In this document: positions 8,304 to 26,113 of the stretch, piece by piece
Numbering within the stretch: position 1 is the stretch's first letter
Layout of the letters: every line of letters begins with the position of its first letter
Assembly: GCA_964597725.1 (NCBI GenBank)
Contig: CAZQZA010000001.1
Location: 1 to 38,184 of the forward strand
Length of the DNA stretch: 38,184 bases
Reading direction: 5' to 3'
Origin: an uncultured Dehalococcoidales bacterium
Lineage (GTDB): Bacteria > Chloroflexota > Dehalococcoidia > Dehalococcoidales > JAUVZE01
Translations under genes and position numbers: made by a program
Notes under the pieces: generated by a model
Seen by the model: the letters and a program-made list of their open reading frames with translations, nothing else
Databases searched by the model: none
Told to the model about the DNA's origin: nothing

Positions 8304-8307
8304 TACG

Positions 8308-9465: not shown

Positions 9466-9741
9466 AGCATCTCCCCTTTCAATGTTAAGTCTTCTCACCC
9501 CGGTCAGTACAGTCGTAGAATCACTGTCCAGTCTTACGTCCAAGCCAGCCAGCCTGAACCACGCTTTACAGTAAAATGGGAGGGGCTAACTGGGGTTCCT
9601 TAACCTCCTCGTACCTCATGCTTGCCGAGTCACACAGGGTATCAGTTCCGTGGATAGAATGGTAGGTTTCTGGCAAACCCTGTCTAGCTGGGTAACTATT
9701 TCCCGCTTAATTTCCAATTTCTCAGCCTACACTTACTTAGC

Positions 9742-10956: not shown

Positions 10957-10967
10957 TTTACGCATCC

Positions 10968-12188
10968 TCATATGATGTGCATTCTCCGCATCTGGGTCAG
11001 ATCCTCCGCCGAATAGCCAAGCGTACCATAGATTTCCTCGTTGTGTTCGGCAAGAGATGGAGCCCTGCGGCTGGAGCTCCATGTCCCGTATGACATCCTG
11101 AAGGGCGGTCCTGGAGCTTTAAATGCCTGGCCATTACAGTCTATTTCTACAAAATATCTCCGGTAATTTAGGTGCTCGTCATTTACTACCTCATCCATTT
11201 TTCTTACCGGTAGAAAGGCGATGTGCTTCTCACGACAACGAGCCATTATCTCAGCTCTGGTGTGGGACATAAGCCACGGCGCAAGCAGGTTGTCCAGGAC
11301 TTCAGGGTATTCCATTCCCACCTTCAAACGATCCTTAAACCTTTCATCTGAGGAATACCATTCTGGAATCTCGCCGTTGCCAATTATCTCCAAGAACCGC
11401 TTCCATTCCGAGCCACGCAGGGCAATCATGGATAAGTATCCATCCTTGCAGGGCAAGATGGTGTAGGGGTAGGGACCGGGAGTCCGGTGTCCTTTGCGCG
11501 TCCTCTTTCGCCCGGCATAGATAAAGGCGGAGACAGCGTTAGCGGTGTGGAAGATAGCCCATGACTCCGCCTCTGAGATATCCAGATGCTGTCCCTTATT
11601 AGTCTTCTTCCGGGCCATCAGGGCGAGCATAACGGCATTGGCTGTTATGATACCGGTCTGGAAGTGCCCCAGTGAAAAGGGAGGAGCGAGCGGCTCCCTG
11701 TCCGGTTCACCAATTATAAGGCTCATCCCCCCGATAGCACTGGCATTGATGGCATAGGCTTTATAGTCCCGGTAGGGGCCATTCTGACCGAATGGTGTAA
11801 TGGAGGCGACAATAAGGTGGGGGTTTTCTCTGCTCAGGTCTCTGAAGGTGACCTTCAGGCGCCTGGCTATCAGAGGCATCATATCCTCAATGAATATGTC
11901 GGCGCCTTCAAGCAGTTTGAGCAGTGTTTCCCGCCCGGTAGCCGTTCTGACGTTCAGGGTAACCGCCTTCTTAGCTCGGTTTAAATAGATGAACAGTCCA
12001 CTACAATCCGGGTCCGAGTGGTCATCGAGGAAGGGACCACACCTACGAGCAACATCGCCTACCCCAGGCTCCTCTATTTTTATGACCTCGGCACCGAGAC
12101 CGGTGAGTAGTGACCCGCAGTAAGGGCCTGAGATATAACCAGCCATCTCTATAACCTTAATCCCCGCCAGAGGCTTCCTCTCTTCCAT
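10968..12188 (-). CDS. Family-III CoA-transferase-fold protein (CaiB/BaiF family), paralog 1
   Basis: 406 aa with an AAGGAG RBS. IKVIEMAGYISGPYCGSLLTGLGAEVIKIEEPGVGD is typical of the family. The position of the catalytic Asp reads A-Y-A. Confidence 0.8.
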   Translation of the reverse strand: MEERKPLAGIKVIEMAGYISGPYCGSLLTGLGAEVIKIEEPGVGDVARRCGPFLDDHSDPDCSGLFIYLNRAKKAVTLNVRTATGRETLLKLLEGADIFIEDMMPLIARRLKVTFRDLSRENPHLIVASITPFGQNGPYRDYKAYAINASAIGGMSLIIGEPDREPLAPPFSLGHFQTGIITANAVMLALMARKKTNKGQHLDISEAESWAIFHTANAVSAFIYAGRKRTRKGHRTPGPYPYTILPCKDGYLSMIALRGSEWKRFLEIIGNGEIPEWYSSDERFKDRLKVGMEYPEVLDNLLAPWLMSHTRAEIMARCREKHIAFLPVRKMDEVVNDEHLNYRRYFVEIDCNGQAFKAPGPPFRMSYGTWSSSRRAPSLAEHNEEIYGTLGYSAEDLTQMRRMHII

Positions 12189-12213
12189 CAGCTTTCCTGC
12201 TCCTTACATGAAT

Positions 12214-13662
12214 CTAATCCTTATAATTTACAAACCTGTCCCGGAATTCATAGTAATTGACCGCCCTGCTTATTACCCTGGCAGCGTTCTCATAGCTGCG
12301 GAATACGGTAAGCCCGGCATCGGCGCACCGCTGCCAAGCCTTAAGCACAATTTCACGACCCTCGGGCGTCTCACCGCTGGTAAGCACAAGAGCGATAGGT
12401 TTAGGCACTGTCTTAAAAATATCCAGCAGGGCATCAATGCTGTAGTTTATCCAGTCCGGGGAACCGCCGTATATGACGAAGGCTTCAGGGTTGACGTGAG
12501 TCAGTATAATATCTATCTCCGGGCTATCAGCCACAATCCTGAAGGCGTCCATATACCCCTGCTGCGCACCAGCTCGTCCCACGCCAACCTCTATGGGGTT
12601 ACGAGCCATAGAGCCAGCCTCAGTGGTTATTCTCTCTAGTTTCGCCCGGGTATCGGGGCTAAACGGGGGCACCTTCAGCCCCACTTTTTCGCACATATCG
12701 GTGGCGACTACCCCCGGTCCCCCACCGCGGCCAATTATGGCCACCTTCCCCCCATTGGGGCGGGGTTTAAGGTATTCTAGCGCCACCAGTTGGTCTACAA
12801 TTTCCTCCAAGCTATATACTCTGATGGCACCGGTTTGGGCAAAAAAGGCCTCCCAGGCCTGCTCCGACCCAGCCAGCGAGCCAGTGTGCGAACGAGTTGC
12901 CTCCCGCCCGGCCTCGGTTAGCCCAGCTTTCAGCATGACCAGGGGCTTTCCCAGAGAGAGACACCTCATCGCCAGGTTGAAGAAGCGTCGGCCATCCTTT
13001 ACCCCCTCTAGGTACAAGGCGATGAATTGGGTCTGGTCATCACCAACCAGCATCTCTAAATAATCGGTGCTGTCCAGGTCAACGGCATTGCCATAGCTAA
13101 CCGCCTTTCCAAAAAAGATGCCCCTGTTGCTACCGTACATGACAATTCGGCCAACACCCGCTCCAGTCTGGGAGATAAGTCCCGCCGGGCCACTGCGCTT
13201 AGGCAAGTTGGCAAAAGTCACCCCACTATCCGGGCAGTGCACCCCGAGACAGTTGGGACCGCTTAAGCGTATCCCTGTTTCCTCCACAATGTTTTTCACC
13301 TCTTCCTGAAGGGACTTCCCCTCCGGTTTTCCGGTCTCAGCAAAGCCCGCCGTGAACACATGGGCTATCTTCACCTCCTTGGCGGCACACTCCCGAAGAA
13401 GTCTGGGCACTAGGGGGGCGGAAACATTCAGAATGGCATAATCAACCGGCTCCTCTATAGCGGTTACTGAGGAATATATCTTCAGCCCCAGCACCTGCGT
13501 TCCCTTGGGATTAACCGGGTAGAGCCTGCCCTTATACCCGAAGTTCAGCAGATTTCCAGTCCAGCCACGCTTTTCTTTCTCCTCGTCACTAGACGCCCCG
13601 ATGACAGCAATGGACTCAGGGTAGAAAACATCCTTAAGCGCAAGCTTCACTTTCTCAACCAT
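12214..13662 (-). CDS. NDP-forming acyl-CoA synthetase alpha-type protein (CoA-binding plus ligase-CoA domains, no ATP-grasp)
   Basis: 482 aa. The N-terminus SIAVIGAS...YPVNPK is a CoA-binding fold. A phosphohistidine-type motif SHTGSLAGS is present. It is paralogous to residues 1-480 of the 708-aa protein at 26139-28265 but lacks that protein's C-terminal ATP-grasp domain. Confidence 0.8.
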   Translation of the reverse strand: MVEKVKLALKDVFYPESIAVIGASSDEEKEKRGWTGNLLNFGYKGRLYPVNPKGTQVLGLKIYSSVTAIEEPVDYAILNVSAPLVPRLLRECAAKEVKIAHVFTAGFAETGKPEGKSLQEEVKNIVEETGIRLSGPNCLGVHCPDSGVTFANLPKRSGPAGLISQTGAGVGRIVMYGSNRGIFFGKAVSYGNAVDLDSTDYLEMLVGDDQTQFIALYLEGVKDGRRFFNLAMRCLSLGKPLVMLKAGLTEAGREATRSHTGSLAGSEQAWEAFFAQTGAIRVYSLEEIVDQLVALEYLKPRPNGGKVAIIGRGGGPGVVATDMCEKVGLKVPPFSPDTRAKLERITTEAGSMARNPIEVGVGRAGAQQGYMDAFRIVADSPEIDIILTHVNPEAFVIYGGSPDWINYSIDALLDIFKTVPKPIALVLTSGETPEGREIVLKAWQRCADAGLTVFRSYENAARVISRAVNYYEFRDRFVNYKD

Positions 13663-13772
13663 CTAATTTCACCTTTCAGTCTTTCGGGTCTGTTCAGGGT
13701 AATAGTGGCTATAGCACCTCCTTCAAAGGTTTCTCTCTCGTAGATTACTGTATCAAGCTCTAATCTTTCCAT
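13647..13772 (-). pseudogene. Remnant of a crotonase (enoyl-CoA hydratase) gene, N-terminal ~32 codons only
   Basis: It translates to MERLELDTVIYERETFEGGAIATITLNRPERL..., against MEFKTVIYEKENFEEGAVATITLNKPETL of the intact crotonase at 15910-16785. DNA 13693-13751 matches 16715-16773 at about 46/59 positions, and at 33 of the first 36. The reading frame then runs into the start of the next gene and stops. Confidence 0.6.
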
Positions 13773-13819
13773 ATTTGCGATATCTTCTTCCGCCCAAGGT
13801 TGCCTATTTACCACCAGCC

Positions 13820-15859
13820 TTAAACTCTCATCGCAGCAATCGCCCCTTCGGTAATGGCATGAGCCATATTCCTGGGCTCCTTGGCATCGCCAATCACAAA
13901 AAGCTTTTCCATTGTATCTTCCATTGTATCTTCCAGCTGAGCCTGCAGGTCATTTACCGACCTCACTCCTAGGGCTAGAATCACCGCATCAGCTTCAATA
14001 AGCCGCTCCTTTTCATATAGATACCGTCCTCCCGCATCACTGACCAGAATCTGCACGCCCTTGTCAGTTATCTTCTCGGCATCAGCCTCACAGATAATCT
14101 CTACGTTCTTATCCGCAATCAATTTGCGAACGCGGTCAATACGGTTGTTGGCGAAGGCTCCAGTGTTAAGGTATGCGAAGGGGAAGTGCTCAATTATGGT
14201 CACCTTATGACCTTTTGCCGCAAGATAGCTGGCTGTTTCGCAGCCGACGGAGAAGCCGCCTATGACAGCGACCCGCTTAGCCCAGGAGATGTCAGCCTTA
14301 CCCCCCAGCACATCATGAGTAGTGAACACATTCTTAGACCCCGCACCGGGGATATCGGGGATAGACGGAGTGGCTCCCGTGGCGATAATCACCGCATCTG
14401 GCTTTGCCTTATCCACCATTTCGGCGGTGACTTCCGTCCCCATATGCACCTTGATATTATTTTTCTCCATCTGACGCACCAGATACTCTATTACCCACCC
14501 CATCTTCTCCTCTTTACCCGGCGCGGCTGCGGCCAGCCTGAGCTGACCACCCAGCTGCTGCGTCCTCTCAAAAAGCTCAACCTCATGCCCCCTCAGTGCC
14601 GCTACCCGGGCAGCCTCCATACCTCCCGGACCACCGCCGATAACCATTACCTTCTTCTTCTGCGGGGCGGGCTGGATTTCACTGAATTCCGCCTCCCGTC
14701 CCGCAGCCACATTAATGGCACAATGTGCCGGGCACTCTAGAGCCACATGCAGGAGGCAGTAGTTACAGGAACAGCATTTCCGGATATCTTCGGTTTTGCC
14801 CTCTTTGGCCTTATTTGCCCAGTGTGGGTCGGCAAACAGAGCTCGGGCCAGGGAAATAAAATCAGCCTTGCCCGATTTTATCAAGTTCTCAGCGAATTCA
14901 GGTTCTCTAATTACACCCACGCACATAACGGGTATATCCACCGCGCTCTTCAGTACCTCGGCCAGGTGTGCCCGGGAGCCCTGGGGAAAGGACATGGGTT
15001 CAATGAGCTGCATAAATCCGCCGTTTATGTGCTCCCAGCCACCACCCCCCTGGTCAATAACGTCAGCACCCGCCTCCTGGCAGGCTTTGGCATAGAACTT
15101 AGCATCCTCAATTGTGATGGAACCCCACTCCATGGCATCCTCGCCAGCAAGCCGTACACTCACTGGGTAATCCTGACCCAGCTCTACCTTTATCCGCTTG
15201 ATTATCTCAGTAACCAGCCTAACCCTGTTTTGAGGAGTTCCCCCATACATATCGGTACGCTGGTTAGCTCGGGGTGACAGAAAGGTATGCAGCAGATACC
15301 CGTTGCATGCGTGCACCTCTACCAGGTCATATCCAGCCAGCATCACCCGCCATGCTGCATCCACATATTCCCCGAGTAAGTCTTCAATCTCTTCCAGAGT
15401 GAGTGCATGGGGCGTAAAGGGCTTTGCTTCAGGTTCCAGCTTTCTCTGCAGTTCTGTATATGCTTCGGGAATTGCTGATGGGGCTACCGGCTCCTGCCCG
15501 TTCAAATCGCCCAGGGTGGTGTGTTTGCCGGGATGGTAGAGCTGAACCCCAATCTTAGCATCCCAAGAGTGGACTGATTCCACCAGCTGAGCGTGTCCGG
15601 ATATATAGTGGTCATTAGTGATATTGAGCAGGCGCCATCGGCCACCATGGCGAGTATCAATGGAAGCGGGCTCCACCATTATCAAACCTACTCCTCCCTT
15701 AGCCCGCTCAGTATAATAGTCAATAACCTTCTGCGTAATGCCGCCAACGCTGTCATTGAGATGTGTTCCCATGGGTGCCATGACGATGCGGTTTTTTACC
15801 CTCAGCCTGCCGATTCTGCCTTCCTCAAATAGATGTGGAAAGTACTTGTTTCTGGCCAT
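13820..15859 (-). CDS. Old-yellow-enzyme / 2,4-dienoyl-CoA reductase (FadH)-type Fe-S flavoprotein
   Basis: 679 aa. The N-terminal OYE TIM-barrel begins LFEEGRIGRLRVKNRIVMAPMGT. A Cys cluster CCSCNYC...C follows. The C-terminal FAD/NAD(P) domain contains VIGGGPGGMEAA. Confidence 0.85.
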   Translation of the reverse strand: MARNKYFPHLFEEGRIGRLRVKNRIVMAPMGTHLNDSVGGITQKVIDYYTERAKGGVGLIMVEPASIDTRHGGRWRLLNITNDHYISGHAQLVESVHSWDAKIGVQLYHPGKHTTLGDLNGQEPVAPSAIPEAYTELQRKLEPEAKPFTPHALTLEEIEDLLGEYVDAAWRVMLAGYDLVEVHACNGYLLHTFLSPRANQRTDMYGGTPQNRVRLVTEIIKRIKVELGQDYPVSVRLAGEDAMEWGSITIEDAKFYAKACQEAGADVIDQGGGGWEHINGGFMQLIEPMSFPQGSRAHLAEVLKSAVDIPVMCVGVIREPEFAENLIKSGKADFISLARALFADPHWANKAKEGKTEDIRKCCSCNYCLLHVALECPAHCAINVAAGREAEFSEIQPAPQKKKVMVIGGGPGGMEAARVAALRGHEVELFERTQQLGGQLRLAAAAPGKEEKMGWVIEYLVRQMEKNNIKVHMGTEVTAEMVDKAKPDAVIIATGATPSIPDIPGAGSKNVFTTHDVLGGKADISWAKRVAVIGGFSVGCETASYLAAKGHKVTIIEHFPFAYLNTGAFANNRIDRVRKLIADKNVEIICEADAEKITDKGVQILVSDAGGRYLYEKERLIEADAVILALGVRSVNDLQAQLEDTMEDTMEKLFVIGDAKEPRNMAHAITEGAIAAMRV

Positions 15860-15909: not shown

Positions 15910-16785
15910 TCATACCAGGCCCTCATACCTCTTATCCCTAGCCTTTATGGCCTCCTTCACCCCCAGGTCTCGCCTCGCCCTCAGGAAGTTGAACTCATCC
16001 TCCTCAAACCTGACATTGGTCGCCATGGTGTGTCCCAGATAGCCCTGAGAAAAGCTGGAGTTGAGTCCCAACGTATCATAGGCCACCTGCGCCATTGCCT
16101 TGCCAATGGCAATGCCGTCCCTGGGCAGCAGCGTGACCACCCTGGCCATCTTCTTCGTCTCTTCCTCCAGCTTGTCCAGCGGCACTGCTTTATTCACTAT
16201 GCCCAGCCGCTCAGCCTCTTTACCATCAAAGGTTTTTCCAGTCAAGAGAAGCTCCCTGGTCTTTTTGGGCCCTATATGCATAATCTCTATCGGCAACACA
16301 TACATGACACCGGCAAAAACCAGCCTCTGCTCTAAATGACCAATCTTGGCATCCTCAGCAGCCAGGGCTAGGTCACAGCATAGCACCGTGTAAAGACCAC
16401 CGCCGATGCAGTGCCCGTGTACCTGGGCTATGGTTACCTTCGGACTGAGGTATATGCGACGAAGAGTGTCCGAGCGCCAGCGGTCATACTTCAGTCTTGC
16501 CCTCTGGCTGGGGCGCCTCGCCTTTTCTTCAGCCTTGCCGCTGCCGCCACCATATACATAGTAGACCCGCCCCAGGTCATAGCCTGAGGAAAAGCAGCGC
16601 CCGGCACCCTTAAATATCACCGCTTTAACGTCATCATCCTCCTCCGCCTGGGTAAGAGCAGCCAGGATATCTTCGGTCAATTCCACATCCATAGCGTTCA
16701 GCGTTTCCGGCTTATTCAGGGTAATAGTGGCTACAGCACCCTCTTCAAAGTTCTCCTTTTCATAGATAACCGTTTTGAACTCCAC
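15910..16785 (-). CDS. Crotonase-superfamily protein (enoyl-CoA hydratase/isomerase family) with an extended insertion
   Basis: 291 aa. ATITLNKPETLNAMD, FSSGYD and HCIGGG are crotonase segments. There are 44 residues between the SGxD segment and the second oxyanion segment, compared with 24 in the paralog at 23924-24685. Confidence 0.85.
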   Translation of the reverse strand: MEFKTVIYEKENFEEGAVATITLNKPETLNAMDVELTEDILAALTQAEEDDDVKAVIFKGAGRCFSSGYDLGRVYYVYGGGSGKAEEKARRPSQRARLKYDRWRSDTLRRIYLSPKVTIAQVHGHCIGGGLYTVLCCDLALAAEDAKIGHLEQRLVFAGVMYVLPIEIMHIGPKKTRELLLTGKTFDGKEAERLGIVNKAVPLDKLEEETKKMARVVTLLPRDGIAIGKAMAQVAYDTLGLNSSFSQGYLGHTMATNVRFEEDEFNFLRARRDLGVKEAIKARDKRYEGLV

Positions 16786-16833: not shown

Positions 16834-17289
16834 TTAAGAAGCTAAGCCCTCCAGCCTCTGTTGCAGGCGTTTGGTAAGCTCCTCCGTCAGCTTCTTGGCC
16901 TTGGCTCGCATTATCTTGTCCCCGAAGGTAGCCAGCCTGCCCACAATACTCACGTCCGAGGAATAGTCTATCTCCACCTCACCCGGGGAAATCTCCTTTA
17001 GCTCCACCGTTGTCTTATGTCTGAAGTGTCCGGCTTTTCCAACGTCATCACCCTCCCCGACAAATCTTATATGAGTCGGCGGCTCTATTTCGGTCAGGAC
17101 AGCCTTGAACTTAAATCTAACGGAAATGGGCCCTACCTTCTGCTTAACCACACAGTCATAGGTCTTATCGTCAATGCGTTCTATCTTCTCCGCACCGGGA
17201 ATACAGGAGAGCAGCGTCTGCGGGTCAAGTATTGAGTCCCACACCTTTTGGATGGGCGCCTTTAAGGTCAATTTCCCCTGTAGTAGCAT
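16834..17289 (-). CDS. CoxG-like SRPBCC protein
   Basis: 151 aa. The pattern L.G...L.API..VW..ILDP..L..CIPG.EKIE...D..Y......KVGPISV.F is typical of carbon monoxide dehydrogenase subunit G family proteins. It lies downstream of a Mo-hydroxylase set. Confidence 0.8.
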   Translation of the reverse strand: MLLQGKLTLKAPIQKVWDSILDPQTLLSCIPGAEKIERIDDKTYDCVVKQKVGPISVRFKFKAVLTEIEPPTHIRFVGEGDDVGKAGHFRHKTTVELKEISPGEVEIDYSSDVSIVGRLATFGDKIMRAKAKKLTEELTKRLQQRLEGLAS

Positions 17290-17322: not shown

Positions 17323-19065
17323 CTATTCCTCAGCAATGCCTGGGTTTAATATCCTCATCAGAGCCAGCTCACGGGGGCTGGGAGGTTCAATTCTTTTGAG
17401 GCTGGGCTGCGCCTTAAGTTCCCAGCCGCAATCCTCCTTTATCTTGCTCACTATCTGGCTCTGGTCTGAGCTTGTATTGGCAAAATACCCGGTAAGCGTT
17501 AATTCATCATCACCGCTTATCTTCTCGAAAATTCCCTTATTAGAGACCACTGTCCTCACATTCCTTCCCGAACATGTTACATATGGCACTTTCTCCACAA
17601 AACGCCTCTTGGACTGAGCAGCGACCACCAGCATCTCCTCAGCAGTGGCGGCATCGTTGGCACCGCCCGAGCCGGTCAGGTAGAAGGTGTCCGATAGCTT
17701 GGTGGAGTTAAGGTTGCCGTATTTATCGAGCTGTCCTGCTCCTACCACTGAAAGACAGCGATTATGTGCAAATACACCATAGGCGTGTACCACATCCGTT
17801 ATCATCTTGCAGGTCCTCAAGTTGGTCAGGCTGGTAAGCTGCGGGTCGGCAGGGCGAGGTGACCATCCGAAAAGACCGGAGCCTATCATCAACTCCACCT
17901 CCACTCCAGCCTTCTTTAATTCATAGAAAGCAAGCCAAGCTGCAAACCCAGCCGTTCCCACTCCGCTCAAAATGACCTTGTACCCGTTCTCTAGAACCTT
18001 CTGCTTTATCACCCTTGATGCTGCAGCAATCATCGTTTCCGCTGCGCTATAATTGGATGCTTTCACCGTCTCTTCAGGCACCGCTAGCAGCTTATGTTCC
18101 CAGTCCACTCGGCTCTGCCCCTTAAGAAGAGAAAGACGCTCAGGGCCAAGCTTTCTGAGGTAATCCTCGTTGGTGGGACAGCCCACAATCCATTCCTTGA
18201 GCCAGCCATCCAGAGTCTCCACCTCCTTGGTTGCCTTTCGGTGCTCCTCCATAAACTCAATGTCTGCATCATAGCCAGCTATCTCTTGAGTAACATTGAA
18301 CAAGGCCTGGGGATGAGAGCCGAATGGGGCTAGGGACACAGACTTTACAAAGTAACCTGGTATGGTGACCAGGGATGAATGCTTCCGGATGAATTCGGTG
18401 GATACCAATTTCTCCACACTGGCTATGACCCCGTTCCTGCTGGCAAATGCCCCCCACTCCCCTTCGCCCGACAGGATGGCCGGGGAGGTTATGATGTTGC
18501 CACTCCTGTCCGCCGCCAATCCATGAACGATGGCCATGTCTGGGTAAAGAGCCTTTGCCAGCCCTATCCTCTCGCCACTGCCAAAGGGGTCATCCATTTC
18601 AATGAAGGAATCCGCATTCTCCTCCGCCATGCTGCTGTGCATAATTGACCTAGTGGGGAGGAAGTCAATTTTGAGGGCTGCGGCCATAAGCCGCAAGGGC
18701 AGGGAATAGAGAGACCAGTTTTCTATCTCCAGAGCCTTCTGCTCATAGGCTCTTTGAATGACCAGGCTCCGCCCCTGTGTTGGGCTTTCCGAGCAGCGGG
18801 AGGTCACGAGCTTAGTTACCAGCCCGCGGTGGACGAGGTCCAGAGCCGTATCCCTAGCCCCTACCATGATAAGTGTGAGCCCGGGCTTGTCTCCCCAGAA
18901 CTGTCTGATAATCTCGCGTATGGGCGCATAAGAGCCTTCACGTATGTAAAGGGCCATGCCAGGCTTCACATACTGGTGTATGGCCTCACTTAGTTCAACT
19001 ACTTTGTCTATACCTTCGTCAGCTGCCAGTTCTATACTGGAAAGGTCACCAAACTTATTCACCAT
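17323..19065 (-). CDS. Fused GctA-GctB-like family-I CoA-transferase-fold protein lacking the catalytic Glu
   Basis: 580 aa. The N-half resembles glutaconate CoA-transferase subunit A (LAPFGSHPQ...WLKEW...EDYLRKLG). The C-half resembles subunit B (GAGQLDKYGNLNST, TGSGGANDAA, SKRRFVEKVPYVTCSG). The signature position for Glu reads LMIGSGLFG; the Gly395 codon is at 17881-17883. Confidence 0.75.
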   Translation of the reverse strand: MVNKFGDLSSIELAADEGIDKVVELSEAIHQYVKPGMALYIREGSYAPIREIIRQFWGDKPGLTLIMVGARDTALDLVHRGLVTKLVTSRCSESPTQGRSLVIQRAYEQKALEIENWSLYSLPLRLMAAALKIDFLPTRSIMHSSMAEENADSFIEMDDPFGSGERIGLAKALYPDMAIVHGLAADRSGNIITSPAILSGEGEWGAFASRNGVIASVEKLVSTEFIRKHSSLVTIPGYFVKSVSLAPFGSHPQALFNVTQEIAGYDADIEFMEEHRKATKEVETLDGWLKEWIVGCPTNEDYLRKLGPERLSLLKGQSRVDWEHKLLAVPEETVKASNYSAAETMIAAASRVIKQKVLENGYKVILSGVGTAGFAAWLAFYELKKAGVEVELMIGSGLFGWSPRPADPQLTSLTNLRTCKMITDVVHAYGVFAHNRCLSVVGAGQLDKYGNLNSTKLSDTFYLTGSGGANDAATAEEMLVVAAQSKRRFVEKVPYVTCSGRNVRTVVSNKGIFEKISGDDELTLTGYFANTSSDQSQIVSKIKEDCGWELKAQPSLKRIEPPSPRELALMRILNPGIAEE

Positions 19066-19110: not shown

Positions 19111-21486
19111 TCAGAACCTTTCTGCCAGCCCAGTTTCCTCGAGCGCCCGCATAATATTCTCCCTGGTGATGGGTATATCACGGAACCTGATGCCCAAGGC
19201 ATTATGGATTGCACTGGCTATGGCGGGAGCGGAGGGGGTAAGTACGCCCTCGCCTAAGCCCTTTGCCCCAAATGGGCCCTCCCGGTGCGGCGCCGGGGCG
19301 AAGTCAAACCTCGCATTGTCTATCAGAGGGTGCTCCATTATAGTGGGGATCTTATAGGAGACGAAGGTGGGGTTCATCACTATACCATCCTCCAACACCG
19401 TTTCCTCATAGAGGGTACTGCCTATGCCCATGCTCATCCCACCCTCCATCTGCTGCTCACACATCTTGGGATTGATGGGACGCCCCATATCAAAGACCCC
19501 AACGAACGTGACGATTTTTACCTCCCCGGTCTCTGTATTTACAGCCAGCTCTACGGCATGGGCACCATAGCAGAAATAGGCTACCACCCGCTCACCCTGT
19601 CCTGTTTCCATGTCCTCAGGGGTTATGGGACAGGAAAAGGTAGCCCGGCCTACTATCTCCGCCCCCTTCCCTACATAGCCACCGGAGCGGAAGAGCTCAG
19701 GCACATTGACGATAGCATCGGGTTTCCCTCTCTGATATATCCTGTTACCCTTCACCTCCAGTTCCTCTGCGGGCACCCCCAGCCTTTCAGATGCCAGTTC
19801 AGCGATTTGCCTTTTGGCATCCTGGCAGGCCATGAGGACTGCATTGCCGATGTAAAAGGTGAGCCGGCTGGAGGCAGTACCCCAGTCATACGGGGTGATG
19901 TCCGTATCGCCGCGGGTGATTTTGACCATATCCACTGGGAGTCCCATTTCCTCAGCAGCTATCTGGGCGGCAACAGTGTCACACCCCTGACCTATCTCAC
20001 TGCCGCTATGGAACACATTGACAGCACCATCTTCCCTCACCTTCACCAGGGCACAGGAATCAGTCCCGGCGATGGTGTATTTGTTGCCCAGGGCTATCCC
20101 CTTCCCCTTCTTCCACGGGCCCGGCTCTTGCTCAGGCTTCTCATCCCATCTGATGAGTGAGGCCGCCTTGTCCAGGCATTCCTCAGCACCCACACTGTGT
20201 GCTATCTCTCCCTGCACATTTCTCTCGCCTTCATGGAGCACATTCTTTCTCCTCACCTCCGCCCGATCCATACCCAGCCTCTCAGCTATCTCATCCATCT
20301 GGCCCTCTACAGCCCAATTTGACTGAGAGCTACCTAGACCACGGAAGGAAGAGTTTGGCGGCCGATTGGTGTAGACGCCATAGGAGTCCAGCTTGAAGTT
20401 GGATATCCGATAAGTGCCCACCGCTCCAAAAGAGGCATTCTTGGTTATAAGGCCGGTGTAGGCAGAATAGGCCCCGGCATCAAGAATCATTTTTATTTCT
20501 CTAGCTACTATGGTACCGTTTTTTTTGACACCATCCCTAACGTAAACTACGAAGGGTATCCTGGCGGGAGAATCTATAAACACTTCCTCACGGTTCAATA
20601 CCAGCTTCACCGGTCTTCCCGGAGTCTGCATCGCTACCAGAGAGGTCAGCGCCTCCTGCATCCAGGTAAGCCCGCCAAAACCACCACCCACATATGGGGT
20701 GATGAATCTCACCTTGGAGGGGGGTAATCCAAAGATATCGATGATGGTAGCCCTCTGCCTCCAAGCAGTCTGGGACTTGCTCCAGATAGTGAGGGTATCA
20801 CCCAGGTCAAACAGGGCTATAACCGTTGGTGGTTCAATGTAGCAGTGCTGTATTCGGGCAGTAGTGTATTTGTTCTCCACTACCAAATCAGCTTCCTTGA
20901 AGCCCTGGTCGGTATCCCCACACCGAATTTTGTAATGGTTTATCACATTGGGCATATCGGGCTCAAGGCGGGGGCGGAGAAAGCCCGTTAGGGTAGTGTG
21001 GTACCTAGACAAGTCTGGGTGAACGATGACCAACGGCTCCTTGCTCATAGCCAGCTCAGAGTCAAATATAGCTGGTAACTCCTCATACTCCACATCGATG
21101 GCGTCAACTGCTTCCTCAGCAGCCTCTATGGTGGTAGCGGATACCGCTGCCACTGGCTCACCAACAAACCGAACCACCTCTTGTGCCAAGAGTGGCCGGT
21201 CGGCCAAGAAAACCCCCCAGCGCCTTGATGGGGCATCCTCGCCAGTTACTACCGCCTGAACACCGGGCACCTTCCAGGCGGCTGAGGTATCTATATTTAC
21301 AATCTTGGCATGAGGATAGGGGCTGCGCAGAATTTTCATATGGAGCATGTTGGGCATTTCTATGTCACCGGTATATATCGCTTTACCGGTTGCCTTTTCC
21401 AAGGCATCCACCCTGGTAACGCTTGTGCTCACCACAGAAAACGGCGCTTCAAGCTCTTTGCTCTCTACCGAAACCTTCATTGTCAT
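19111..21486 (-). CDS. Xanthine dehydrogenase/aldehyde oxidase-family molybdopterin-binding large subunit (set 1)
   Basis: 791 aa. It has the N-terminal a/b-hammerhead (KATGKAIYTGDI), YVGGGFGG, and a C-terminal PFGAKGLGEGVL containing the family Glu. Confidence 0.9.
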   Translation of the reverse strand: MTMKVSVESKELEAPFSVVSTSVTRVDALEKATGKAIYTGDIEMPNMLHMKILRSPYPHAKIVNIDTSAAWKVPGVQAVVTGEDAPSRRWGVFLADRPLLAQEVVRFVGEPVAAVSATTIEAAEEAVDAIDVEYEELPAIFDSELAMSKEPLVIVHPDLSRYHTTLTGFLRPRLEPDMPNVINHYKIRCGDTDQGFKEADLVVENKYTTARIQHCYIEPPTVIALFDLGDTLTIWSKSQTAWRQRATIIDIFGLPPSKVRFITPYVGGGFGGLTWMQEALTSLVAMQTPGRPVKLVLNREEVFIDSPARIPFVVYVRDGVKKNGTIVAREIKMILDAGAYSAYTGLITKNASFGAVGTYRISNFKLDSYGVYTNRPPNSSFRGLGSSQSNWAVEGQMDEIAERLGMDRAEVRRKNVLHEGERNVQGEIAHSVGAEECLDKAASLIRWDEKPEQEPGPWKKGKGIALGNKYTIAGTDSCALVKVREDGAVNVFHSGSEIGQGCDTVAAQIAAEEMGLPVDMVKITRGDTDITPYDWGTASSRLTFYIGNAVLMACQDAKRQIAELASERLGVPAEELEVKGNRIYQRGKPDAIVNVPELFRSGGYVGKGAEIVGRATFSCPITPEDMETGQGERVVAYFCYGAHAVELAVNTETGEVKIVTFVGVFDMGRPINPKMCEQQMEGGMSMGIGSTLYEETVLEDGIVMNPTFVSYKIPTIMEHPLIDNARFDFAPAPHREGPFGAKGLGEGVLTPSAPAIASAIHNALGIRFRDIPITRENIMRALEETGLAERF

Positions 21487-21953
21487 ACTTTCTTCCCCTT
21501 ACTGTAGGCCAGGACAGTCTTCACTATTTTCTTGTATCCGGTGCAGCGACACAGGTTGCCACGCAATCCTTCTCGGACCTGTTCCTCAGTAGGGTTGGAA
21601 TTTTCATCTACCAGAGCTTTGGCGGCGAGTATCATCCCTGCTGTGCAGTAACCACACTGGATGGCAAAGTGGTCGATGAAGGCCTGCTGAAGAGGATGAA
21701 GCGCGCTATCCTTGCTCAGCCCCTCTATGGTAAGTATATCTCTGCCTTCTGTCTGGAGCGCCAACACCAGGCAGCTCTTTACCGCTCTACCATCAATGAG
21801 AACAGTACAGCTACCACAAAAACCGCTGTTGCAACCAGACTTGACCCCTTTGAGCTTTAATTCGTCCCGCAAAACCTCCTGCAGTGTCCTCCAAGCATCC
21901 ACAAATATGGTTACCTTCTCCCCGTTGACTGTGAACTCCAAACGCTGCTTCAT
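21483..21953 (-). CDS. [2Fe-2S]-binding small subunit of the Mo hydroxylase (set 1)
   Basis: 156 aa. It contains GCNSGFCGSCTV, QCGYCTAGM and LCRCTGY. It overlaps the large-subunit start by 4 nt. Confidence 0.9.
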   Translation of the reverse strand: MKQRLEFTVNGEKVTIFVDAWRTLQEVLRDELKLKGVKSGCNSGFCGSCTVLIDGRAVKSCLVLALQTEGRDILTIEGLSKDSALHPLQQAFIDHFAIQCGYCTAGMILAAKALVDENSNPTEEQVREGLRGNLCRCTGYKKIVKTVLAYSKGKKV

Positions 21954-22828
21954 CTGGACCTACCTCCTTGAGCTAAGGCACGTTCTACTGCACGAGAGAC
22001 TATCTCCTTGGTAAGCACATAGACTATCCGTTTCTTATATTCTGCTGACCCTTCCAGGTCGCTTGAAGGGTCAGCCTCTTCCGCAGCCGCTCTGGCTGCT
22101 TCGCCGAGGGGAAGGGCACCAAGGCTAGCTCCAGATAGTAACTTGCTGGCTTTCTCAGCCTTGATGGGTGTCGGACCTACTCCACCCAGTATGATACGAG
22201 TCTCTCTCACCTTCTCCTTCTCCAGTCTCACCATGGCCGCCACTGCACCAATGGGGTTATCCCCAGCCCTAATAGTCTCCTTGCGATATGCTGCCCCACT
22301 TGAATCAGGTGGATTGGGGATTTGCACCTCCACCAGAAGCTCGTCTGGTTCAAGCACGGTAGTAAGATAATCCTCAAAGAAGTCTTCAAGGTGTATCACC
22401 CTTTTCCCCCTTTGGCTCACCGCCTTGACCTTGGCACCCAAAGCAATGAGTGGAGGTGCCGGGTCACCCCCAGGGTCAGCATGTACTAGGTTGCCGACCA
22501 GTGTCCCCCAGTTCTTAATCTGCGCCTGAGCCAGCCAGCGCTCCATCTCCATCAGCACCGGGAAGTGCTTCCTTATTAATGGTGATGTCTCAACATCCCT
22601 ATGAGTTGCCAGAGCCCCTATCCGTATCCCTTCTCCATTCCCAACGATGTAATCCAATTCAGAGACATACTTAAGGTCGATGATATAATCTGGCGCCATA
22701 ATTCGCTGTTTGAGCATAGGGATGAGGCTCTGTCCGCCGGCTATTAATTTAGCCCCTTCTCCATGCTCCGTAAGCATACAACACACTTCCTCTACGCTGG
22801 TGGGGCGCAAATATGCAAAGGGCCTCAT
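21950..22828 (-). CDS. FAD-binding medium subunit of the Mo hydroxylase (CoxM-like, set 1)
   Basis: About 292 aa from the ATG at 22828 (AAGGAGG 6 nt upstream; the track starts at a GTG at 22831). It has the LIAGGQSLIPMLK FAD-binding motif. It contains only 2 Cys and has no Fe-S insertion loop. Confidence 0.85.
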   Translation of the reverse strand: MRPFAYLRPTSVEEVCCMLTEHGEGAKLIAGGQSLIPMLKQRIMAPDYIIDLKYVSELDYIVGNGEGIRIGALATHRDVETSPLIRKHFPVLMEMERWLAQAQIKNWGTLVGNLVHADPGGDPAPPLIALGAKVKAVSQRGKRVIHLEDFFEDYLTTVLEPDELLVEVQIPNPPDSSGAAYRKETIRAGDNPIGAVAAMVRLEKEKVRETRIILGGVGPTPIKAEKASKLLSGASLGALPLGEAARAAAEEADPSSDLEGSAEYKKRIVYVLTKEIVSRAVERALAQGGRSR

Positions 22829-23008
22829 CACAAACCTCCTTTTTCCTAGCTACGATACATTATAGCCTGTACAAGATGAAGAAGCTACGCTCATCAATGA
22901 CCTCTGTCTTTTCACATCCGGGAATGCAGTTACCTAGATTCTCCAGATTGACTATAAAATCCTATGATTTCTGAAGTGGTGCATTAACCGTAAATTTATC
23001 CTGAATAA

Positions 23009-23905
23009 TCACAGCTTTCCCCTTGATTTCAGGATTTGCTCGAGTTCCTTTATCACAATATCTATCCTGTCCCACTCATCGATAGGTGAACGTCGCCGTA
23101 GATTCTCCAACAACTCAAAATTTAGAGATGCTGAGACAATTCCCTCTTCTGGACCACCCTCAGCGTAAATCTGGGACATCTTCCACCCCCTGCCAGCGAT
23201 AGTGCTGTGCCCATAGAAGGATTTTGTCCTTTCTTTCCCGGTTAAATTAGCACTGGCGGTATAGACTATATTCTCCGTCCCCCGGGCGCAGGTCTGGTGG
23301 ACAATAAAGTCATCCTTACCCGCTCCAGCAGGACTGGCAGCAGCGTTAAGGATGATTCTAGCTCCCTTCAGCATGAGCACTCTTGACAGCATGGGAAATG
23401 TCCAAAAATCATAGCATATCTGGACGCCGATGGTTCCCAAGTTGGTCTCAAAAACGGGAAGGCTGTCTCCAGGCGTGAAACATTGTGTCTCGGTTAGTGG
23501 TAATGCCATAAGGTGAATTTTACGATAGGCTCCAAGTATCCCTTCGGGGCCGATAACCGCTGCCGAAATATGCCTTATTTCCGGGTTCTCCGGGTTTTTC
23601 TCTGGCATCCCAAAAACCACATATATCCCTGTTTCCTTAGCAGTCTTGGCAATCTCCTCAGTGGAAGGACCAGGGATGGTCTCTGCCAGCTCACGGTGCA
23701 TGTAACAGCCGCCTTCGGCGATATCCTCACTGCACTCATAGCCACTGAGGGCTAGTTCAGGGAAAAGCACTATGTCATTGCCCTGCTCAGCCGCTTGCTC
23801 AGTAAATCTCTTTATTTTTTTGAGATTGGCTTCCTTATCTCCCCATACCGTGGCAAAATTAACACAAGCTATGGAGACAACCTTTGGGTGTTCTTTTTGG
23901 GCCAA
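23009..23905 (-). CDS. Carbon-nitrogen hydrolase (nitrilase superfamily; amidase/N-carbamoylase-like)
   Basis: 298 aa with a TTG start and a GGAGGGA RBS. The Glu-Lys-Cys triad contexts are FPELALSGY, YRKIHL and VQICYDFWTFP. Confidence 0.85.
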   Translation of the reverse strand: MAQKEHPKVVSIACVNFATVWGDKEANLKKIKRFTEQAAEQGNDIVLFPELALSGYECSEDIAEGGCYMHRELAETIPGPSTEEIAKTAKETGIYVVFGMPEKNPENPEIRHISAAVIGPEGILGAYRKIHLMALPLTETQCFTPGDSLPVFETNLGTIGVQICYDFWTFPMLSRVLMLKGARIILNAAASPAGAGKDDFIVHQTCARGTENIVYTASANLTGKERTKSFYGHSTIAGRGWKMSQIYAEGGPEEGIVSASLNFELLENLRRRSPIDEWDRIDIVIKELEQILKSRGKL

Positions 23906-23923: not shown

Positions 23924-24685
23924 TTATTTACCGGTAAACTCAGGTACTCTCTTCTTTTTAAAAGCAGCTATTCCCACCTTATGGTCCGCTGTCTCTCGGC
24001 ATATAGTTTGGGCCTGGTATTCGAGCGCTAGCACCGTAGCAATATCCGAATTCTGTGTAACGTTCAGAATCCTTTTTATCATCGCCATTGGCTTCGGCGC
24101 CCCTTTTGCCAGCCGCTTGGAATATTCCTTAACGAAATCTTGAAATTCCTCATCGGGGACCACTTTGTTCACCATCCCTATTCTCTCTGCTTCCACTGCC
24201 GATATTCGGTCTCCGGTAAGCATAAGCTCTTTTGCCTTGTAGATTCCCACTAACCTGGGCAAAAAATACATTCCTCCCCAGTCCGGAACAAGCCCTATTT
24301 TGACAAAGCTCTGAATAAAACTCGCCTTCTCCGAAGCAATAACAATATCTGCGGCCATTGCCAGGTTGCAGCCAGCACCAGCGGCGACACCATTAACCGC
24401 AGATATTACCGGTTTCTCCAGATTCATAATCTTAAGGACTATTGGATGAGACTTTATCATTCTTTCAGACTTGCCCATACTTCTCATATCACCACCAGAG
24501 CAAAAGGCTCTTCCCTTTCCAGTGATGGTTAGCACTCTGATATCAGCATCCGCCTCTATATCATCCAAAGCAGCTAGAAGCTCCCGCCTCATTGTATTGT
24601 CTATGGCATTAAGTACATCGGGCCTGTTTAGATATAGGGTAGCAACCTTTTTTTCTTTTTCTAAAATTACGGTTTCAAATGGCAT
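23924..24685 (-). CDS. Enoyl-CoA hydratase/isomerase-family protein
   Basis: 253 aa. VATLYLNRPDVLNA, FCSGGD and AAGAGCNLAMAADI are canonical crotonase segments. Confidence 0.85.
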   Translation of the reverse strand: MPFETVILEKEKKVATLYLNRPDVLNAIDNTMRRELLAALDDIEADADIRVLTITGKGRAFCSGGDMRSMGKSERMIKSHPIVLKIMNLEKPVISAVNGVAAGAGCNLAMAADIVIASEKASFIQSFVKIGLVPDWGGMYFLPRLVGIYKAKELMLTGDRISAVEAERIGMVNKVVPDEEFQDFVKEYSKRLAKGAPKPMAMIKRILNVTQNSDIATVLALEYQAQTICRETADHKVGIAAFKKKRVPEFTGK

Positions 24686-24724: not shown

Positions 24725-26113
24725 TTATCTTTTTATATACTTTCCAAAGCCTTCCTTATTGAGAACTTTGCCATTTTCCATAATCACCTCTCCCCTGAGG
24801 ACGGTTAACACCGGCCAGCCCTTTAGCGTCCATCCGTCCCAGAGAGAGAAGTCAGACAAGCCCTGAAGCATCTCCGGGTTCACCTTTTTCTCCAGGTCAA
24901 GGTCAACGATAGCGAAATCGGCATCACTACCAATCTCTATTGTTCCTTTCTTAGGATAAAGGCCAAATATCTTGGCTGTATTATAGGAAGCCAGTTCAGC
25001 CACCTCCTCCAGAGATAGGCGTCCTTTGTTTACCCCTTCGCTCAAAAGGAGTGGTAGCAATAAGGCAACCCCGGGGAAACCAGGAACAGCGCTCCAGATA
25101 TCCTTTTTCTGTTCTTTCAAGAGGTGACAGTGGTCTGTACCTACTGTATCTATATCCCCATCGACTATCCCTTGCCAGAGGAAATCAATGTCCTCCTGAG
25201 TCCTCAATGGTGGGTTCACCTTGCCAAAAGGACCAATCGGAGAATCTTTGGTCTGAGTTAAATAATGAGTGCAGGTCTCAGCGTAAATCTCTACCGGACT
25301 TCGCTCTCTATGAAGCATTATCTCTCTTAGAGCAGCTTCACAGGTAACATGAACAATATAGGCTGGACAGTTAGTAATCTCAGCAAGATACAAAATACGA
25401 CGAACACTTTCGGCTTCACAAAAGTCTGGCCTACCGTCAGTCCAGGCGGCAAGGTCCTGCCTGCCCTGTGCCTTTAACGGCGCAGTCAGCATGGTGAGAA
25501 GCTCCATACTTTCACAATGTACCATAACAATTACCCCGGGATACTGACTTAACTCAGCAAAAGTTCGATATAAGAACGCATCGTCAACATCGTTTGTTAT
25601 CCCCAGGGCTTTACCCTCAGCACCTTTGTAAGCCATGGAATACTTGAAGGATTTAACTCCGTACTCCTCGATATATTTTTTATACTCCTTTGGCTCTGCT
25701 TGAGAGTTGGTGGATATCATGAGATGCACACCGAAATCAACGTGTGATCGCTCTTCGGCTTTGCCCATAATTTCCCAAAAGTCCTCATAGGGTGATGGCT
25801 GCTGTCCGTACTGACGATAGAAGTGAATGTTAGTGGTTACACCTCCGACTGCCGCTGAAGTTGTTTCCGTGCCGAAGGCCTCATAAAATGAACCATAAGG
25901 AGCCCCAGGATATCCAGGGTGGCTATGGGGGTCAATAATTCCGGGCAGGACATACTTTCCACTTATATCTACTTCCTTCTTGGCGGATACCTCTTCGGAA
26001 GGAGACAGGATTGCTACCACCTTTTCGCCCCTTATTCCTATGTTTCCTTCGATAATTCCGCGCTGAGGGATAACTAACTTCCCATTCTTGATAAGCAAAT
26101 CAAATTGGCTCAT
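24725..26113 (-). CDS. Cyclic amidohydrolase of the dihydropyrimidinase/hydantoinase type
   Basis: 462 aa with an AAGGAGG RBS. The metal-site motifs appear intact: IDPHSH, SFKYSMAYK (the carboxylated-Lys context), VMVHCES, YIVHVTC and GTDHC. Confidence 0.85.
   Translation of the reverse strand: MSQFDLLIKNGKLVIPQRGIIEGNIGIRGEKVVAILSPSEEVSAKKEVDISGKYVLPGIIDPHSHPGYPGAPYGSFYEAFGTETTSAAVGGVTTNIHFYRQYGQQPSPYEDFWEIMGKAEERSHVDFGVHLMISTNSQAEPKEYKKYIEEYGVKSFKYSMAYKGAEGKALGITNDVDDAFLYRTFAELSQYPGVIVMVHCESMELLTMLTAPLKAQGRQDLAAWTDGRPDFCEAESVRRILYLAEITNCPAYIVHVTCEAALREIMLHRERSPVEIYAETCTHYLTQTKDSPIGPFGKVNPPLRTQEDIDFLWQGIVDGDIDTVGTDHCHLLKEQKKDIWSAVPGFPGVALLLPLLLSEGVNKGRLSLEEVAELASYNTAKIFGLYPKKGTIEIGSDADFAIVDLDLEKKVNPEMLQGLSDFSLWDGWTLKGWPVLTVLRGEVIMENGKVLNKEGFGKYIKR

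Follow-up and report, generated by a model that had tools for sequence, protein, structure and literature searches.

A glutamate-less fused glutaconate CoA-transferase-like protein as a candidate acyl-CoA decarboxylase in a gene cluster probably serving anaerobic breakdown of a methylated pyridine acid

What does a protein with a coenzyme A (CoA)-transferase fold do once it has lost the residue that carries the CoA group? The question is raised by one gene on contig CAZQZA010000001.1 (assembly GCA_964597725.1) from an uncultured Dehalococcoidales bacterium, analyzed here as a single window of 38,184 nucleotides (positions 1 to 38,184, forward strand). The gene (17323-19065, minus strand) codes for a 580-residue protein in which a GctA-like and a GctB-like part, resembling the two subunits of the family I enzyme glutaconate CoA-transferase, are fused in a chain that lacks the catalytic glutamate. 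A preliminary description, drawn from the sequence alone, had proposed that this protein may be no transferase and that it might instead cleave a ring in the manner of the steroid-degrading hydrolase IpdAB. Our analysis indicates that the protein likely does a job other than ping-pong CoA transfer, and the leading candidate for that job, advanced tentatively and by analogy with the enzyme AibAB, is the decarboxylation of a carboxylated glutaryl- or glutaconyl-CoA by way of an enolate.

The peptides quoted in the preliminary description (GAGQLDKYGNLNST, TGSGGANDAA, SKRRFVEKVPYVTCSG, LMIGSGLFG and ALYIREGSYAP) are all present in the translation of the minus strand at 17323-19065, and its reading of a fused GctAB-like protein with a GctB-like C-terminal half is borne out by structure-database matches, the family profile and the modeled fold alike. 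A phmmer search of solved structures aligns residues 21-315 with GctA of Acidaminococcus fermentans glutaconate CoA-transferase (1poi_A, E=2.4e-20) and residues 357-500 with GctB (1poi_B, E=5e-13). A profile of 43 family members matches GctA with E=1e-38 (136 bits) and GctB with E=6e-21 (78 bits), where the GctB match now reaches the C-terminus of the protein. The GctA-like alpha domain spans residues ~21-315 (18121-19005, minus strand) and contains the only match to Pfam CoA_trans (PF01144; residues 24-244, 62.9 bits), which is confined to the N-terminal half. The GctB-like beta domain spans residues ~341-575 (17341-18045, minus strand), aligned by the family profile with GctB residues 9-256, and holds the glycine-rich motif G465-S-G-G-A-N-D471 (17653-17673, minus strand), which aligns with GSGGANG of GctB and is kept in relatives with and without the catalytic glutamate. 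An AlphaFold2 model built on the family alignment (mean predicted local distance difference test score 90.6, predicted template modeling score 0.91) matches the single-chain family I transferases ASCT, YdiF and SCOT over its full length in Foldseek (E~1e-25), and GctA with a template modeling score of 0.81. Sequence and model thus agree on a predicted two-domain family I fold with GctA and GctB joined in one chain. Similarity to Cat1/AarC-type structures (4eu3 and others) is limited to residues 396-486 (E~1e-3), and a Pfam scan of the protein gave no AcetylCoA_hydro match.

In family I CoA-transferases a glutamate of the beta domain, Glu54 in GctB, attacks as the nucleophile, and the ping-pong mechanism runs through the resulting enzyme-CoA thioester. 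HMMER pairs VELMIGSGLFGWSP of the fused protein with CHIIVESGLMDCSP of GctB, in the pairwise and the family-profile alignment alike, and the core of this alignment (ELMIGSGLF versus HIIVESGLM) sets Gly395, with codon GGC at 17881-17883 on the minus strand, at the position of Glu54. The preliminary description had arrived at Gly395 by eye and allowed that a profile alignment could yet place a glutamate there; the profile alignment places a glycine, and the agreement of the two methods rules out an error of register. With glycine at the nucleophilic position the protein is predicted to be unable to form the glutamyl-CoA thioester, so that, as far as the alignments tell, it cannot use the classical ping-pong mechanism. 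A sequencing error or pseudogene is ruled out by the two base changes that separate GGC from a glutamate codon, by the identical protein sequence on three further assembled contigs and by the glycine present in all close homologues. The preliminary description also noted a degenerate N-terminal GGF signature. The signature is indeed absent, ALYIRE----GSYAP having a deletion relative to HIALGGFTTDRKPYA of GctA, but it is equally absent from fused relatives that retain the glutamate, and we therefore dismiss it as uninformative about loss of function.

The loss is not peculiar to this contig. A search of ~5.8 billion proteins returned at least 500 relatives, and the column counts and tree that follow use the query and its best 120 matches. 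Nearly all relatives are fused proteins of ~590 residues from metagenomes and metagenome-assembled genomes (MAGs), with named source organisms that include Thermodesulfobacteriota, Chloroflexota, Syntrophales, Nitrospinae and Bathyarchaeota; a collection of species-representative genomes yielded no close orthologue, the best match being 52% identical. The column at position 395 contains 84 Gly, 2 Ala, 1 Met and 34 Glu, and every match with at least 50% identity has Gly. A neighbor-joining tree parts the 34 Glu-bearing from the 87 Glu-less sequences by one split, and Glu is present in nearly all of the more remote fused or split relatives found in genomes. As the nearest relatives of the Glu-less proteins are Glu-bearing fused proteins, the residue appears to have been lost here separately from its loss in IpdAB and AibAB, and the simplest reading of the tree is one ancient loss of Glu within a family of presumably genuine transferases. 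Database names of the relatives are generic, either 'CoA-transferase' or 'acyl CoA:acetate/3-ketoacid CoA transferase', and for the Glu-less members either annotation is very likely wrong.

Inspection of the two groups side by side reveals few consistent differences. Conservation reaches at least 90% in both at 77 positions, among them the GSGGAND motif, H181, D186, E218, H251, D447 and N453. Besides position 395 itself (Glu in 34/34 of the Glu-bearing proteins), three sites set the Glu-less proteins apart. Position 429 (Tyr429; 17779-17781, minus strand) is Tyr or His in 85 of 87 Glu-less proteins and Leu, Met or Ile in all 34 Glu-bearing ones; position 396 (Ser396; 17878-17880, minus strand) is Ser or Thr in 63 of 87 as against a hydrophobic residue; and position 115 (Glu115; 18721-18723, minus strand), which aligns with Glu99 of GctA, is Glu in 87/87 as against 26/34. 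Conversely, Asn at position 373 (33/34) and Gly at positions 92 and 439 (34/34 each) are features of the Glu-bearing proteins, and these three positions are variable in the Glu-less group. Since the differences are few and bring in new polar residues, the active site appears from the alignment to have been re-tooled rather than merely broken. That is to say, the constraints imposed by a glutamyl intermediate would have been relaxed and residues capable of proton transfer fixed, with Tyr429 as a candidate general acid.

The surroundings of the two groups also differ. The Glu-bearing fused proteins (such as P0038, P0041, P0051 and the second gene of locus L092, all uncharacterized) share the fused architecture at 45-49% identity, but keep Glu395, Asn373, Gly92 and Gly439 and have Leu or Met at position 429; their neighbors are of a beta-oxidation-like kind (acyl-CoA dehydrogenase, AMP-ligase, short-chain dehydrogenase/reductase) with few family III CoA-transferases. 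A family III CoA-transferase gene is found within 10 kb at 9/14 Glu-less but only 2/13 Glu-bearing loci (Fisher p=0.018), and by this association the CoA ester of the Glu-less proteins is apparently supplied by another enzyme. At locus L092 (JGI 3300038380, 1498-6899), four CoA_trans genes stand in tandem, with a Glu-less fused gene, a Glu-bearing fused gene (ELMAEMGLYGY) and a split A/B pair, which suggests that the Glu-less and Glu-bearing forms are complementary within one operon.

These data bear on whether the protein might still transfer CoA between molecules by some other route, either with another carboxylate, for example Glu115, as a relocated nucleophile or by way of a mixed anhydride in a ternary complex. 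A precedent for the latter is the alpha subunit of citrate lyase, in which a mixed anhydride is formed directly between two acids within a ternary complex, and the family profile does match the citrate lyase alpha-like structures 2hj0 and 1xr4 weakly, as does the NCBIfam citF model the protein itself (E=0.008). Retention of the glycine-rich beta motif and of most conserved transferase residues would fit such a route, as would a Glu115 that is invariant only in the Glu-less clade and the position of the gene directly after a methyltransferase gene of the MttB family in three clusters (see below), which would suit an early activating step. Against it, the clusters already encode several CoA-activating enzymes, and Glu-less copies occur together with family III transferases, while L092 also has a Glu-bearing paralogue, which speaks for a different, complementary function. 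To our knowledge, moreover, no Gct-type family I enzyme works without the beta-domain glutamate, and we regard an unconventional intermolecular transferase as unlikely. The suggestion of the preliminary description that this is no ordinary transferase is supported by the ancient and conserved loss of Glu, the new clade-specific polar residues and the separate CoA-activating enzymes of the cluster, as far as sequence comparison can show.

Which known enzyme of the fold is the better guide? GctAB (A. fermentans, PDB 1POI) is the best match to both halves and shares the xSGL loop and the GSGGAN motif, yet it consists of two subunits with Glu54 (beta) and the GGF motif where the present protein is fused with Gly395 and no GGF, and it belongs to a hydroxyglutarate fermentation operon rather than a catabolic cluster for a nitrogen heterocycle. 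The second-best solved match to the profile is AibA (E=1.6e-13, 53 bits); AibB scores 23 bits, and both matches are of partial coverage. AibAB of Myxococcus xanthus (PDB 5MZW-5N03) likewise combines a Gct-type fold with a substitution of the catalytic Glu; it is no transferase and acts on a CoA ester of the C5-dicarboxyl type: with Cys56 of AibB in place of the glutamate, it decarboxylates 3-methylglutaconyl-CoA via an enolate (PMC7756340). It is unlike our protein in carrying Cys56 instead of Gly, in having separate subunits and in its biosynthetic setting (isovaleryl-CoA). Candidate counterparts of its proton donors, Cys56B and Glu72B, are Tyr/His429 and Glu115. Orthology to AibAB is ruled out by the bit scores and by the tree, in which the nearest relatives are Glu-bearing fused proteins.

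The comparison with IpdAB made in the preliminary description was a reasonable one, since IpdB of R. jostii RHA1 has Gly57 at the position of the catalytic Glu; IpdAB has no transferase activity and catalyzes a hydration with carbon-carbon ring cleavage (PMC5380842). IpdAB (COCHEA-CoA ring hydrolase, PDB 6CO6, 6CO9, 6COJ, 6CON) shares with our protein both this glycine and the Gct-type fold, and differs in its separate subunits and its context, the steroid KstR2 regulon. Were the protein an enzyme of this kind, it would add water to an unsaturated cyclic acyl-CoA and cleave a ring bond in a retro-aldol or retro-Claisen reaction, with a reduced hydroxypyridine-carbonyl-CoA as substrate. The PDB sequences 6co6_A and 6coj_A of IpdA differ by a single E to A change in REMD[E/A]GMV, at chain residue 117. 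We take the residue so mutated to be the catalytic base Glu105 of Crowe et al. 2018. Its counterpart in the fused protein is Leu119 (18709-18711, minus strand), 16 residues ahead of a shared FLP anchor with no gaps between, although the invariant Glu115 lies only four residues before this position. The family profile gives 44 bits for IpdA and 14 for IpdB, far below the values for GctA and GctB, and orthology to IpdAB is ruled out by these scores and by the tree. The steroid HIP-catabolic context of IpdAB (IpdC, IpdF, EchA20, FadA6, KstR2) is not seen among the neighbors of the gene.

What are those neighbors? From ~33617 down to 7890, all genes of the window lie on the minus strand. Two molybdenum (Mo) hydroxylase sets are encoded, the first at 29925-33617 (Mo subunit 31296-33617, flavin adenine dinucleotide (FAD) subunit 30406-31299, 2Fe-2S subunit 29925-30422) and the second at 19111-22831, directly upstream of the Gct-like gene (FAD 21950-22831, 2Fe-2S 21483-21953, Mo 19111-21486). 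The solved structure most similar to both Mo large subunits is 4-hydroxybenzoyl-CoA reductase alpha (1rm6), with 517 bits for set 1 and 378 bits for set 2 as against 383 and 253 bits for the next-best structures; both are much less similar to nicotinate dehydrogenase, quinoline oxidoreductase and xanthine dehydrogenase. The FAD subunits (293 and 297 residues) match the 4-hydroxybenzoyl-CoA reductase beta model weakly. From these similarities, the Mo hydroxylases may act on heteroaroyl-CoA thioesters and not on free acids. A MarR regulator and a MobA/MocA-like nucleotidyltransferase are encoded divergently on the plus strand (6211-7795), the latter fitting the synthesis of a cytosine dinucleotide Mo cofactor for both hydroxylases.

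Between the two hydroxylase sets, in order of transcription and all on the minus strand, lie genes for a carboxyltransferase of the propionyl-CoA carboxylase (PCC) beta/methylmalonyl-CoA decarboxylase alpha (MmdA) type (28297-29874), a fused ADP-forming acyl-CoA synthetase (26139-28265), a cyclic amidohydrolase of the hydantoinase/dihydropyrimidinase type (24725-26113; 268 bits to 1gkr), a 253-residue PaaG-like protein of the crotonase family without either hydratase glutamate (23924-24685) and an amidase of the CN-hydrolase family (23009-23905). The cyclic amidohydrolase is likely the ring-opening enzyme; an enamidase-type amidohydrolase was looked for in the window cluster and not found, the hydantoinase type being present instead. 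A carboxyltransferase of the glutaconyl-CoA decarboxylase type was likewise looked for and not found, the one present matching the PCC-beta/MmdA type with ~590 bits and GcdA with only 119 bits. This carboxyltransferase may decarboxylate an alpha-carboxylated acyl-CoA intermediate; it stands alone, with no biotin carrier or membrane subunit nearby, and was not seen in the related clusters.

Downstream of the Gct-like gene, and again on the minus strand, follow a CoxG/SRPBCC protein (16834-17289), whose direct adjacency recurs in locus L090, the crotonase ECH291 (15910-16785) and a 679-residue reductase of the 2,4-dienoyl-CoA reductase/BaiCD type that joins an old yellow enzyme (OYE) domain to an FAD/NAD(P) domain (13820-15859). 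ECH291 has only the second hydratase glutamate (GHLEQRL), with Tyr at the first (GGGLYTV), and is 67-81% identical between related clusters; its glutamate pattern resembles that of hydratase-lyases, and the 253-residue crotonase resembles the PaaG isomerase. Next come an acyl-CoA synthetase alpha-like protein with CoA-binding and flavodoxin domains but no ATP-grasp domain (12214-13662), a family III CoA-transferase pair (9742-12188; 10968-12188 and 9742 to ~10956) and an SCP-x-type thiolase (8308-9543) with a DUF35/OB-fold partner (7890-8303), the two spanning 7890-9543. The synthetase alpha-like gene stands beside the family III pair in several clusters at 61-67% identity, and L008 has a separate small ATP-grasp gene. 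Still on the minus strand, at 648-5984, are an MttB-family methyltransferase (648-2096), a corrinoid protein (2163-2795) and a tripartite ATP-independent periplasmic (TRAP) transporter, DctMQP (2884-5984). No pyrrolysine stop was seen in the MttB gene of the window, and its product scores 443 bits to the trimethylamine model, under the cutoff of that model.

The cluster around the Glu-less gene is conserved in at least eight metagenomic loci. It surrounds orthologues of 58-63% identity in L007, L008, L009, L090, L097, L098 and L099, as well as a Glu-less copy of 43% identity in a MAG of Candidatus Desulfobacula maris (L029), and part of it is shared by a Bathyarchaeia locus with split A/B genes (L083). 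Besides the Glu-less Gct-like gene, the shared module has genes for both Mo hydroxylases, for the hydantoinase-type amidohydrolase and the CN-hydrolase amidase, for an OYE reductase and/or an acyl-CoA dehydrogenase, and for ECH291, the synthetase alpha-like protein and pairs of family III CoA-transferases. The Gct-like gene lies downstream of the amidase gene in four related clusters, directly so in L008, L029 and L090 and with an OYE gene between them in L007. The order thereafter is Gct-like, CoxG, ECH291, OYE in the window and Gct-like, (CoxG), acyl-CoA dehydrogenase, ECH291 in L090 and L099. The gene that follows Gct-like/CoxG alternates between clusters: L090 (12245-13402) and L099 (11839-12999) have a short-chain acyl-CoA dehydrogenase there, while the OYE+FAD reductase takes this place in L008, L029 and the window, and in L008 both reductase and dehydrogenase are present. 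MttB and/or corrinoid protein genes adjoin the catabolic genes in seven clusters (the window, L008, L009, L090, L097, L098 and L099), with MttB homologues 76-85% identical and MttB directly upstream of the Gct-like gene in three, and TRAP transporter genes occur in the window, L090, L097, L098 and L099.

Close packing with the Mo hydroxylase genes, which in L009 overlap the Gct-like gene by 11 bases, might be expected if a protein that had lost its catalytic residue served as a non-catalytic CoA-ester-binding or scaffold subunit, passing substrates to a Mo hydroxylase or to the reductase. Such a role is highly improbable. The protein is conserved over its whole length, with invariant polar residues H181, D186, E218, H251, D447, N453 and D471; the newly conserved Tyr429 and Ser396 suggest that the active site is functional; and Glu-less homologues occur without Mo hydroxylases at many loci. 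One of these, P0022/L004 (GCA_040960625.1, JBFOMW010000795.1; 57% identical), has as neighbors three UbiD decarboxylases, a TRAP transporter, a CoA ligase, a family III transferase, an aldehyde:ferredoxin oxidoreductase, a beta-keto acid cleavage enzyme (BKACE) and an HMGL-like protein, and is a different degradation cluster, possibly for an aromatic polycarboxylate. Another, L013 of Thermodesulfobacteriota MAG172 (1521-14757), holds an IclR regulator, three crotonases, two Glu-less Gct-like genes, three family III CoA-transferases and no dehydrogenase, and looks like a redox-neutral dicarboxylate pathway.

Taken together, the genes of the module probably encode an undescribed anaerobic breakdown of a methylated pyridine acid such as trigonelline. 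Two Mo hydroxylases with an imidase-type amidohydrolase and an amidase point to a pyridine ring that would be hydroxylated on both sides of its nitrogen, reduced, opened as a cyclic imide and deamidated, and the type of reductase and the likeness of the Mo enzymes to 4-hydroxybenzoyl-CoA reductase suggest that the ring steps take place on a CoA thioester. Conservation of the MttB, corrinoid protein and TRAP transporter genes suggests growth on a carboxylated quaternary N-methyl compound, with trigonelline as the obvious candidate, and a demethylase of the corrinoid-dependent kind that would act on N-methylpyridinium carboxylates, for instance trigonelline or homarine. We found no characterized demethylase for an N-methylpyridinium carboxylate. 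Trigonelline figures in a 2023 paper as an unknown aromatic methylamine substrate for corrinoid-dependent demethylation. Our literature search found no mention of nicotinoyl-, 6-hydroxynicotinoyl-, citrazyl-, picolinoyl- or isonicotinoyl-CoA or of such a CoA-dependent route, and nothing relevant on anaerobic nicotinate degradation by sulfate reducers.

In the proposed pathway, an N-methylated pyridine carboxylate, most plausibly trigonelline (N-methylnicotinate), would be demethylated to nicotinate, which would be converted to its CoA thioester, hydroxylated next to the ring nitrogen and then reduced. The position para to the CoA-carbonyl of nicotinoyl-CoA would be C6, in keeping with the likeness to 4-hydroxybenzoyl-CoA reductase. 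The amidohydrolase would next open the cyclic imide and the amidase deamidate the product, giving a C5 dicarboxyl-CoA with an extra carboxyl group, such as 2-carboxyglutaryl-CoA, from which one or two decarboxylations would be required to reach glutaryl-CoA and crotonyl-CoA. Isonicotinate and picolinate were considered as substrates and placed below nicotinate. Nicotinate is preferred because N-methylpyridinium carboxylates occur naturally as the 3- and 2-isomers, because two amide-hydrolyzing enzymes and two hydroxylases would fit a 2,6-dioxo (imide) intermediate, and because the 4-hydroxybenzoyl-CoA reductase likeness would fit para hydroxylation.

This context weighs on the IpdAB-like hydrolase from both sides. 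A crotonase, a flavin reductase and a thiolase are the partners of IpdAB, and the window does offer a crotonase, the OYE reductase and the SCP-x thiolase with its DUF35 partner, as the preliminary description had observed in part. The thiolase and DUF35 genes, however, were seen in the window only, the sequenced portions of the other clusters showing neither. The surroundings point to a nitrogen heterocycle and not to a carbocyclic beta-keto-CoA route; ring opening and release of ammonia would already be provided for by a dedicated cyclic amidohydrolase and amidase, and the Gct-like gene tends to lie downstream of that amidase. With Leu119 at the position of Glu105 and a closer relationship to GctAB, a ring-cleaving hydrolase of the IpdAB kind is improbable, and this part of the preliminary description is not sustained.

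A decarboxylase fits the same context better. The recurrent order amidase, Gct-like, (CoxG), dehydrogenase or OYE, crotonase implies that the protein acts after the step that yields a free carboxylate and before steps of the beta-oxidation type, which is where the inferred pathway needs a decarboxylation. The ancestral scaffold, moreover, binds C5 dicarboxyl-CoA esters, GctAB being the closest relative and AibA the next; loss of the Glu side chain would free space near the thioester for an alpha-carboxylate; the gained Tyr/His and the fixed Glu would suit protonation of an enolate better than a reaction that needs neither acid nor base; and an acyl-CoA dehydrogenase or reductase, along with a crotonase, is encoded next. 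The MmdA-type carboxyltransferase of the window also hints at an alpha-carboxylated acyl-CoA intermediate. In the mechanism that we propose, a glutaryl- or glutaconyl-type CoA ester would be bound in the ancestral Gct pocket with its thioester carbonyl polarized, CO2 would leave via the thioester enolate, Tyr429 and/or Glu115 would protonate the enolate, and the resulting glutaryl-CoA or crotonyl-CoA would be taken over by the acyl-CoA dehydrogenase or reductase and the crotonase encoded alongside.

Several points weigh against assigning this decarboxylation to the Gct-like protein. The substrate of the cluster is deduced from gene content alone, and two other proteins could decarboxylate instead, namely ECH291, as crotonase-fold decarboxylases exist, and the PCC-beta/MmdA-type carboxyltransferase of the window. 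Other Glu-less homologues stand in different settings, such as P0022 with its three UbiD genes and the dehydrogenase-free L013, where the gene pattern fits a CoA-isomerase role equally well. The match of the profile to AibB is also weak, so that AibAB serves as an analogy and not as an orthologue.

The CoA-isomerase role, the main rival to the decarboxylation, has its own precedent in ThnP of the N47 culture, which takes part in anaerobic naphthalene degradation and is a family I protein of the Cat1 subgroup with Gly238 that performs intramolecular CoA transfer only; an internal anhydride is proposed, and a specific acyl-CoA dehydrogenase acts next (PMC11659651). By analogy, the carboxylate of the substrate would attack its own thioester to form a cyclic anhydride, and the retained CoA thiolate would re-attack the other carbonyl, moving CoA between the carboxyls of an unsymmetrical di- or tricarboxylate such that the next dehydrogenase or hydratase could act. 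ThnP is like our protein in having Gly for the catalytic Glu and in handling a dicarboxyl-CoA ester in an anaerobic degradation operon. An intramolecular shift would be the smallest change from a transferase, with nearly all conserved residues of the Glu-bearing relatives kept, and would suit the strong link to family III CoA-transferases, which are typical activators of dicarboxylates, the position after an amidase, which is a source of a new free carboxylate, and the crotonases, family III transferases and two Glu-less copies that L013 combines without a dehydrogenase. The dehydrogenase that acts after ThnP may have a counterpart in L090 and L099, where the genes that come next encode an acyl-CoA dehydrogenase and a crotonase, whereas the window has the OYE-type reductase and crotonase instead.

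Three considerations make the intramolecular shift doubtful nonetheless. ThnP belongs to the Cat1 (4-hydroxybutyrate CoA-transferase-like) subgroup whereas our protein is of the Gct type, with no detectable orthology, and the likeness is one of mechanism only. The anhydride mechanism needs neither the conserved Tyr/His nor the invariant Glu115. Finally, the nicotinate route needs decarboxylation of the ring-opened product, while a CoA shift would be needed mainly in an isonicotinate-type route, for which we know of no natural N-methylated precursor. The enolate decarboxylation therefore stays our first choice, with the reservations given above.

More broadly, the Glu-less fused Gct clade might constitute a new class of CoA-thioester lyases, either decarboxylating or otherwise cleaving carbon-carbon bonds, with Tyr429 and Glu115 as catalytic residues. 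We put this forward only as a possibility, together with its setting, an undescribed, fully anaerobic and CoA-dependent trigonelline/nicotinate pathway of sulfate-reducing and related bacteria. In this pathway an MttB-family trigonelline:corrinoid methyltransferase would act first, Mo enzymes would then hydroxylate nicotinoyl-CoA, an OYE-type enzyme would reduce the ring, and a hydantoinase-type imidase and an amidase would carry out opening and deamidation.

IpdAB, AibAB and ThnP, all CoA-transferase-fold enzymes without the glutamate, each proved to do unexpected chemistry. The lineage described here is a fourth, independent and much larger one, uncharacterized to date, and it holds most of the 120 best relatives of the protein. 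Trigonelline is an abundant plant and marine osmolyte. Within a cluster that may account for the degradation of pyridine carboxylates, possibly including trigonelline, by strict anaerobes, the Glu-less Gct-like protein is the member least understood.

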